A stretch of DNA of 64,000 bases from Octopus vulgaris (taxonomy: Eukaryota), in NCBI GenBank assembly GCA_951406725.2, contig OX597837.1, forward strand, positions 6,944,001 through 7,008,000. Direction: 5' to 3'. Positions 61,524 through 63,368 of this stretch are shown here, one piece after another; within the stretch, counting starts at the first letter, position 1; every line of letters starts with the position of its first letter. The position numbers were made by a program, and so were the translations under genes. A model generated the notes under the pieces. The model was given only the letters and a program-made list of their open reading frames with translations. It had not been told where the DNA came from and ran no database searches.

Positions 61524-62326
61524 CAGGAGTTGGACAAAATAATGGAAACACCCAGCATCATAGCATCATAATTTTGAATTATCAATAAAACTGTCAAAGC
61601 TTGTTTATTTTTATCGTTTTTGATTTATTATTAGTGTTGCTTAATACGTTTTGTTAAATTACTATTTGTTTTCAGATATCGTCAGAAGAAGGTAATTAAA
61701 ATTCATTAAAATGACAGATCTATCGGACTTTCAAAGAGGTCAAATTGTTGGTGATCTTATTGCCAGGCGCCAGCGTAACGAAAACTGCCGAAATATTTGG
61801 TGTATCAAGAAGTACTGTCTCGAAAGTAATGACAGCTTTTGAGAAAGAAGGAAAAAAACCTTCTCGTCGAAACAAAACTCCGGAAGAAAAAACAAAACTT
61901 TCAGATAGGGACCGTCGGACTCTTACGCGAATTGTTAGAAAGGATCACAAAAGCACAGCTCCCAAAATTACTGCAGTGCTTAATGACCTCCTTGAGAACC
62001 CAATTTCCACAAAACTGGCCGAGTATACATGTGGAGACAGCCAAAAGAAGCATTTGACCCAAACTGCCTTCTTCCAACTGTTACTCATGGAGAAAGATCT
62101 GTGATGATCTGGGCATATTTATCTTGGAAATCCACCGGCCCAACGGTTTCCTTCCATGGCATAATTAATAATCAAGACTATTGAAGCATTTTATCTGATC
62201 AAATTCATCCTATGGCTGTGGAACTATTTCCGGATGGAAACGCAATCTTTCAGGATGATAATGCACCAATTCTCACAGCTAAAGTTGTTACTGAACGGCA
62301 GGAGGAACATTCTAGTGAAGTTGAAG
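61524..62326 (+). pseudogene. Tc1-like transposon relic (left TIR plus frameshifted, internally deleted transposase)
   Basis: TA-CAGGAGTTGGACAAAATAATGGAAACACC; ATG at 61711 MTDLSDFQRGQIVG; HTH AEIFGVSRSTVSKV; PTVTHG..SVMIW; IFQDDNAP; 3' end missing. Confidence 0.9.
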
Positions 62327-62439
62327 GGATAGAGGTATCCATAGGCACTCCTGGTATTACCTCAGTATGTATGGTCCTTGTTGTAAGGCATACAGTAGTA
62401 GGTAATTTAAAGATAAAACCGTGGTTTAATATATACAGA

Positions 62440-62562
62440 GACGATAAGAAATGGAGCGATAAGCAGTGAGAAGTGGATCTTTGGCGTTATAAAGTCATTA
62501 TTCAGTCATTTATAACACCAACGATCCACTTTTCACTGTTTATTGCTCCATTTCTTATCGTC
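62440..62562. repeat. Hairpin with 54-bp arms and 15-nt loop
   Basis: gacgataagaaatggagcgataagcagtgagaagtggatctttggcgttataaa pairs with 62509-62562 (five differences). Confidence 0.9.
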
Positions 62563-62606: not shown

Positions 62607-62675
<69 letters not shown>

Positions 62676-62677
62676 CA

Positions 62678-63297
62678 TAATAAATATAAGGGTAGCAAAA
62701 AATTCTAGAAAAAATTCTCCGCTACCAGCGGTCTAGTGAGAAAGAAAATATAGTCAAAGACTATATAATATACATTCAACAATATAAGGAATGGCCATAT
62801 AGGACATTCGACTCACTAGAAAGGGCAGCCAACCTCAAACCGCTAAATAGTTGTAATTCTGAAATAGAAAGAGAAATAAAAACGTTTACCCCTTCATCTC
62901 TGGACTATGCATAGTTTCGGCAAACTTAGGCAAATGAATTAATTAAATTAAATTAAATTCATTTACATCTGGCGTGCCTCGTCAGCAGAGAGCCTAGGAC
63001 GAGTATATGTCCACGAGGCTATGGTAATATGCTCTAAATTTTCAAAATTCCACCGCGATCGTGCGGTCAACTCAGCAGCAAATATATACTCTTGTTTTAA
63101 TTTCAAAATTAGCCAAAAAATCATTAATTAATAAATATAAGGGTAGCCTTCATTTGCCTAAGTTTGCGAAACTATGCATAGTCCAGAGATGAAGGGGGTA
63201 AACGTTTTTATTTCTCTTTCTATTTCAGAATTACAACTATTTAGCGGTTTGAGGTTGGCTGCCCTTTCTAGTGAGTCGAATGTCCTATATGGCCATT

Positions 63298-63304
<7 letters not shown>
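62678..63304 (-). mobile_element. 451-bp hammerhead-containing unit with 19-bp terminal direct repeat plus an inverted partial copy (Penelope pLTR/retrozyme-like)
   Basis: taataaatataagggtagc at 62678 and 63129; 62782-62938 is the near-perfect reverse complement of 63149-63304; (TA)n on both flanks. Confidence 0.8.
62897..62991 (-). ncRNA. Intact-looking type I hammerhead ribozyme
   Basis: Minus strand tctctg-CTGACGA-ggca...(long AU hairpin)...tgcc-GAAA-ctatgcata-GTC-cagaga: consensus core, 6-bp stem I, G-C-closed stem II, palindromic stem III, GUC triplet. Confidence 0.85.

Positions 63305-63368
<64 letters not shown>

Follow-up and report, generated by a model that had tools for sequence, protein, structure and literature searches.

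A young two-armed insertion of a non-coding hammerhead repeat in Octopus vulgaris, likely a non-autonomous Penelope-type element

Layout of the insertion and its hammerhead motif

We analyzed a 64,000-nt window of the Octopus vulgaris genome (assembly GCA_951406725.2, contig OX597837.1, positions 6,944,001 to 7,008,000 of the forward strand), in which positions 62678-63305 hold two arms of one repeat in opposite orientations. Arm A (62678-63147), whose RNA sense is the minus strand, comprises one full monomer, 451 bp in this copy, plus a 19-nt overrun into the next turn; its head-to-tail junction lies at 63128/63129. Its 3′ end is site A (62678-62691, minus strand), at which a CCTTATATT motif is followed by TATTA and then the TA run. 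Read in RNA sense, site A is preceded at a distance of 98 nt by an internal copy of a second end site, B (CCTTATATTGTTGAAT; 62774-62789, minus strand), and the stretch of 98 nt between the two sites on the minus strand corresponds to the tail of Penelope-like elements (PLEs). Arm B (63149-63305), with the plus strand as RNA sense, is an inverted, 5′-truncated copy that runs from stem II of the hammerhead to site B and ends in the TA run, 8 nt short of the usual B end. It begins within the 3′ strand of the stem II extension and thus contains no more than half of the ribozyme.

An earlier sequence-only reading had described a 451-bp unit bounded by a 19-bp direct repeat, a near-identical inverted copy of ~155 bp starting inside stem II, (TA)n on both flanks and no ORF. 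The inverted copy was borne out as a 157-bp arm with no substitutions and two one-base indels relative to 62782-62938, the flanks are (TA)n target runs at 62610-62672 and 63301-63364, and stop-to-stop reading gave no ORF longer than 72 aa wholly inside the unit. The direct repeat is likewise real, with 19/19 nt identical between 62678-62696 and 63129-63147 (minus strand) at a spacing of 451, but the length of 451 bp proved peculiar to this copy, which has a 17-bp deletion relative to a family monomer of ~468 bp. An ORF with reverse transcriptase (RT) and GIY-YIG endonuclease, the mark of an autonomous PLE, was not found in the element. The unit (451 nt, GC 0.35) fits what is expected of a retrozyme monomer: it should be short and non-coding, contain a type I hammerhead and have a GC content under 45-50%. 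The proposal that the insertion is recent also held: alignment of arm against arm showed no mismatch over 147 columns, where the family averages 3.1%, so that the window copy is young relative to the family and, by arm identity, among its youngest members. A possible intron (GTGAGT ... CACTAG, ~62814-62731, minus strand) was spotted by eye in this copy, and no splice joint for it occurred in the sequence-run contigs holding family sequence.

The hammerhead motif lies at 62897-62991 on the minus strand, as the earlier reading had it, and was the single match returned by our own motif scan of both strands of the window. It has CUGANGA, GAAA, NUH and helices I-III in type I order, with a stem I of 6 bp (TCTCTG at 62991-62986 and CAGAGA at 62902-62897), a CUGACGA core (62985-62979), an extended stem II whose 4 bp (GGCA/TGCC) enclose 51 nt of loop region that include an AU-rich hairpin, then GAAA at 62918-62915, and a self-complementary stem III (CTATGCATAG, 62914-62905) followed by GUC; cleavage is predicted after 62903, between 62903 and 62902. 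Rfam scans gave no hammerhead family match for the motif, probably because of the long stem II, and returned only spurious microRNA matches on TA runs. The minimum-energy fold predicted for the isolated motif does not show the core. For stem III, predicted energies were -0.3 kcal/mol for the monomer hairpin and -12.5 kcal/mol for the intermolecular duplex; with a hairpin this marginal and a duplex this stable, the ribozyme is predicted to act as a dimer through its palindromic stem III, in agreement with the dimer model for metazoan hammerhead motifs (PMC4209133).

Across the family, we saw stem III in the form of three distinct palindromes, at 44, 23 and 2 sites, and the variants CGATGCATCG and CAATGCATTG are found in older subfamilies. 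We examined covariation in 24 hand-picked motif rows (23 distinct), in which 96% of cells were paired and 10/25 pairs showed two-sided changes, compared with 0-3 pairs in slid controls; 0/500 shuffles scored as high, a result that is not a probability, the rows being related by descent. Stem II switches between G-C and A-U in half of the rows, and two rows account for most of the changes in stems I and III. Compensatory changes are seen in all three ribozyme stems, across subfamilies 75-95% alike, and their pattern implies that the hammerhead fold is under selection. At 22/69 sites in the second of the two mapped sets described below, CCGAUGA stands in place of CUGANGA with the palindromic stem III kept; older subfamilies with the CCGAUGA core include L142, L148 and L152.

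In a read-through transcript of the window copy, the inverted arm is predicted to pair onto GAAA, stem III and the cleavage site, forming a perfect duplex of ~155 bp. Two consecutive complete ribozymes are absent from this copy, which has one complete motif and, in its inverted arm, half a motif on the other strand. A single complete ribozyme, which the inverted arm would mask, makes the window copy probably a dead end, and by itself it could not release a monomer circle.

To the left of the insertion, 61700-62330 holds a broken remnant of a Tc1/mariner-type transposase with N-terminal HTH matches, and a DDNAP-type motif in another frame of this remnant is presumably part of the same transposase. 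Just left of the TA run, an imperfect hairpin of ~95 bp (62454-62548) is possibly a short inverted-repeat element, and a minisatellite with a 9-15-bp period extends from 60148 to about 60900.

A dispersed family with two 3′ ends

The repeat belongs to a family dispersed in the 2.8-Gb genome of 227 contigs. Exact matches genome-wide numbered 197 for a 22-mer, 744 for the stem III 16-mer (1 for the reversed control) and 1064 for a downstream 16-mer, and older subfamilies added 242; all of these counts are minimum values and refer to arms, not to insertions. The sequence-only reading had staked its interpretation on the existence of other genomic copies, and at least 744 exact ribozyme-core matches bear it out. 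Nineteen other full monomers were 90-97% identical to the window copy, and older subfamilies were ~75-85% alike. Head-to-tail tandem units of the ~468-bp monomer are present; of 12 other copies measured, 11 had a period of 467-471 bp and one had a period of 457 bp. Contigs of three runs guessed to be RNA and of one unlabelled run also contain family sequence and the head-to-tail joint; in these contigs a circle is inseparable from a genomic tandem, and RNA from DNA. As for traces of A-to-I editing, A>G changes read in RNA sense were no more frequent than T>C changes (55 vs 95 events, 6.4 vs 6.9 per 1000, p 0.68); C>T slightly exceeded G>A in the family (p 0.04, uncorrected).

We mapped 146 places, 83 in a first set (110 loci merged, one without match) and 63 further places in a second. 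Places were chosen either for the best match or, in chromosome order, for an exact motif, which biases the sample towards intact copies. Read in RNA sense, the arms have their 3′ ends at either of two fixed sites. These sites, A and B, lie 98 nt apart, read CCTTATATTTATTAAT and CCTTATATTGTTGAAT, and are alike at 13/16 positions. A or B ends ran into (TA)4 in 106/113 cases in the first set and 76/83 in the second. The 5′ ends are scattered, with arms of 31 to 936 nt, and single-armed 5′-truncated copies are common. Because arm length is variable, the 19-bp redundancy of the window copy is a chance overrun past one turn and not a fixed terminal feature, a refinement of the earlier reading. We also looked in older subfamilies for A and B motifs that had changed in concert, and such a change was not established.

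Two-armed insertions almost always joined one A end to one B end. This held for 32/33 scorable insertions in the first set (window copy included; 16 more were not scorable) and for 20/20 in the second (4 more were not scorable), giving 52/53 A+B, one A+A and no B+B when pooled (p about 1e-14 vs random pairing). The window copy is itself A+B, its arm A measuring one monomer plus 19 nt and its arm B ~157 nt. We found together the partial tandem, inverted 5′-truncated copy, tail at one end and microsatellite target that form the signature of Penelope-like insertion, and the direct-plus-inverted layout, already recognized by the earlier reading as the usual Penelope pattern, matches the known PLE layout (PMC8557442).

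Some mapped copies were observed in particular settings. L094-L096 share an upstream flank and represent one local duplication, and L111-L113 (G000:C1:212.56-212.59 Mb) are a truncated copy within a local 1.5-kb tandem duplication, beside an AT-rich minisatellite. In a single case, L231 (G000:C6:130879356), an internal deletion rejoins exactly at the ribozyme cleavage site.

PLE machinery is present in the genome. We found a young coding PLE family with a 765-aa RT and GIY-YIG ORF, a CX4CxxC linker and an upstream 466-aa ORF, which by its linker would be of the Neptune/Nematis type (PMC8557442). Copies of this PLE likewise have two end sites, separated by 38 nt, in (TA)n. Two copies have an inverted arm (L066 and L068); one pairs the two ends, and the other, with a further partial tandem, gives the same result. 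The pLTR of this PLE showed no similarity to our family (best E 0.11). With 150/6136 GIY-YIG candidates scored, the family pLTR was joined to an ORF at 0/50 GIY-YIG loci, one neighbouring copy occurring at L078 and a short fragment at L033, and no autonomous partner was found through the GIY-YIG loci, through shared upstream flanks or by reading L033, L217 and L226. In the other direction, 0/146 places had a coding PLE joined to a family copy (flanks of 1.5-3 kb for most loci). The earlier reading had reasoned that copies always adjoining a coding PLE would make the element an ordinary pLTR; with none so joined, a non-autonomous retrozyme-type element is indicated instead.

The young coding PLE is abundant (L064:244-5460, G000:C6:133343000-133350000, and L061-L076), and its 466-aa ORF overlaps the 765-aa RT-GIY-YIG ORF; its pLTRs are ~500 bp and contain only a non-canonical hammerhead-like motif (TTGATAA ... 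GAAA). At L226:2339-6320, a family copy has landed in the TA run already occupied by a different coding PLE copy with two arms, and is nested there where the inverted pLTR of that PLE ends. Type I hammerhead-like motifs unrelated to that of the family occur near the PLE loci L034, L038, L039, L069 and L073.

Template, proposed mechanism and alternative explanations

Four junctions had suggested that arm starts accumulate at the cleavage site or just before it. This was unsupported genome-wide: 157 matches keep TC before the downstream stem vs 1 without it, and controls at four other offsets gave 1, 0, 2 and 1. Arm 5′ ends fell within 10 nt of the cleavage site in 4/136 cases, with 6.1 expected. 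Since copies show no pile-up of 5′ ends there, the template is intact at the scissile bond, that is, a circle or an uncut multimer. Within insertions, tandem units diverged by 3.14% and inverted arms by 3.15%, compared with a median of 8.6% between insertions. This equality is as expected if the pieces came from one RNA species at one time, and is supportive, not decisive, of one template per insertion; the pairs are not independent, and while for 43/100 pairs within an insertion no other insertion was closer, the remaining 57/100 had a closer match in another insertion.

Taken together, the sequence features indicate that the window copy is a young two-armed insertion of a non-coding hammerhead repeat, likely a non-autonomous Penelope-type element (non-LTR retrozyme) for which a PLE RT-endonuclease would act in trans. 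Transcription would start from multimeric source copies; tandem dimers exist at L114, L142 and L185, and multimeric copies such as these are plausible sources of new insertions. Paired ribozymes would cut the RNA into monomers, which would be ligated into circles. A PLE protein would then nick both strands of a (TA)n run, with one nick priming cDNA at site A and the other at site B of the same RNA species. Each cDNA would run a variable distance round the template, and the two would be joined tail to tail into a direct and an inverted arm, which for the window copy would mean one turn plus 19 nt in arm A and about 157 nt in arm B. We infer with good confidence the part played by a PLE protein in trans, with nicks in both strands, priming at A and B and tail-to-tail joining, and we lean modestly towards a template produced by cleavage and circle formation. 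A more specific version, which we put forward tentatively and would not yet back, pictures a circular RNA parasite in which a PLE dimer binds two CCUUAUAUU..AAU motifs 98 nt apart on one circle, each subunit priming from one nicked (TA)n strand before the cDNAs are fused tail to tail. If true, it would account at once for the inverted copy and for a tail found at one end only, and a 468-nt RNA could serve as the minimal cis-template with which to reconstitute PLE insertion.

An alternative that we find possible, if rather doubtful, retains the same non-autonomous PLE derivative and takes as template an uncut linear read-through of tandem sources, with no circle and with the ribozyme carried along or acting at another step. 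Read-through of the cleavage site fits this, equal divergence of units and arms also fits a homogeneous tandem source, the three tandem dimers could serve as such sources, and uncut RNA was the dominant substrate of the anole PLE in vitro (PMC11167929). However, the compensatory changes in all three stems imply a selected fold, and a linear route only shortens arrays, so some step must regenerate multimers. The monomer is also predicted to fold well as a circle (z -4.2 vs 40 shuffles), though local hairpins may explain this score. The PLE-supplied retrozyme that we prefer has observations against it as well: no coding PLE with the same pLTR appeared among the 50 GIY-YIG loci; arrays are short, with 8 arms crossing two ribozyme sites and at most 2 ribozymes per arm in the first mapped set of 83 places; the core is missing from the minimum-energy fold of the isolated motif, and the 22/69 sites with CCGAUGA depart from the consensus. 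In addition, 8/9 Xenopus retrozyme dimers failed to cleave in vitro (bioRxiv 10.64898/2026.07.22.740005), and anole PLE insertion did not need ribozyme cleavage (PMC11167929).

That the insertion is an ordinary 5′-truncated pLTR remnant of a coding PLE seems improbable, though a coding parent may still be the family's ancestor. The layout is typical of PLE remnants (PMC4209133), and PLE ORF remnants lay within 1.5-3 kb of 13/146 places. None of these was continuous with an arm 5′ end: the two loci with the longest ORF remnants, read base by base, are separate neighbouring insertions, and the others are set apart from family arms by TA runs, orientation or distance. Moreover, arms read upstream regain their own start after ~468 bp and enter no ORF, the free 5′ flanks of independent places share no sequence (55 flanks), and for the window copy its own head-to-tail junction at 63128/63129 largely refutes this origin. 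We give scarcely any credence to a DNA-level repeat, whether a satellite unit or a foldback of MITE type, for which recombination or a DNA transposase would have caused the spread and the ribozyme would be incidental. Inverted arms and a TA target are superficially MITE-like, and the Tc1-like remnant lies 350 bp to the left, but the outer ends, being different (A and B), are not terminal inverted repeats; the inner junctions shift freely and so do the lengths of the arms, with no fixed ends or fixed length seen across copies; single-armed 5′-truncated copies are common, and the ribozyme covaries.

Comparison with known systems

The family is new, and the class of element is already known; our literature search, which covered octopus retrozymes and hammerhead-Penelope elements as well as the two-strand tail model and was thin on subscription journals, yielded no publication on the present family. 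Two questions are described as open in PMC8557442, PMC11167929 and bioRxiv 10.64898/2026.07.22.740005: by what route PLEs produce tandem and inverted insertions, and whether PLE proteins serve animal retrozymes. The octopus family supplies a large protein-free set of insertions with a near-absolute rule of one A and one B end, a common start-site motif and a template intact at the cleavage site, and both questions therefore become testable with a short RNA.

Judged by sequence and at the level of the family, the repeat has the features by which animal non-LTR retrozymes are recognized. As in those of coral, mussel and axolotl (PMC7229834) and of vertebrates (bioRxiv 10.64898/2026.07.22.740005), the monomer is non-coding, low in GC (35%) and a few hundred bases long, and carries one type I hammerhead in which helix III is palindromic; copies stand head to tail, and PLEs co-occur. 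The monomer is slightly longer than the 170-400 nt circles reported for metazoan retrozymes. Unlike those retrozymes, the family consists mostly of dispersed monomers and short partial tandems with inverted arms rather than long arrays, and its stem II is extended, with an AU-rich hairpin. By the definition given in bioRxiv 10.64898/2026.07.22.740005, two consecutive complete ribozymes, the window copy is a monomer derivative and not an active retrozyme; the same preprint argues that retrozymes derive from PLE pLTRs.

PLE insertions, as described in PMC8557442, comprise a partial tandem and an inverted truncated copy, often with a tail at one end. The family resembles the Neptune/Naiad pattern of endonuclease-positive PLEs given there in its partial tandem, inverted 5′-truncated copy, tail at one end, (TA)n target and lack of a discernible target-site duplication, and its hammerhead lies upstream of the ends, as in PLE pLTRs (PMC4209133). 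It differs from endonuclease-positive PLEs in having no ORF and a tail of 98 nt, compared with 30-40 nt in the PLEs described. With the anole Poseidon element PAc in vitro (PMC11167929), it shares two internal reverse-transcription start sites downstream of the hammerhead that define the tail, as well as cutting and extension of both strands of an AT-rich target, which for the family we infer from genomic copies. The start-site difference between strands is where they part, since none was seen for PAc in vitro, whereas one A and one B end were found in 52/53 genomic insertions of the family; and, unlike PAc, the family has start sites ~130 and 228 nt past the cleavage site that have a common sequence motif.
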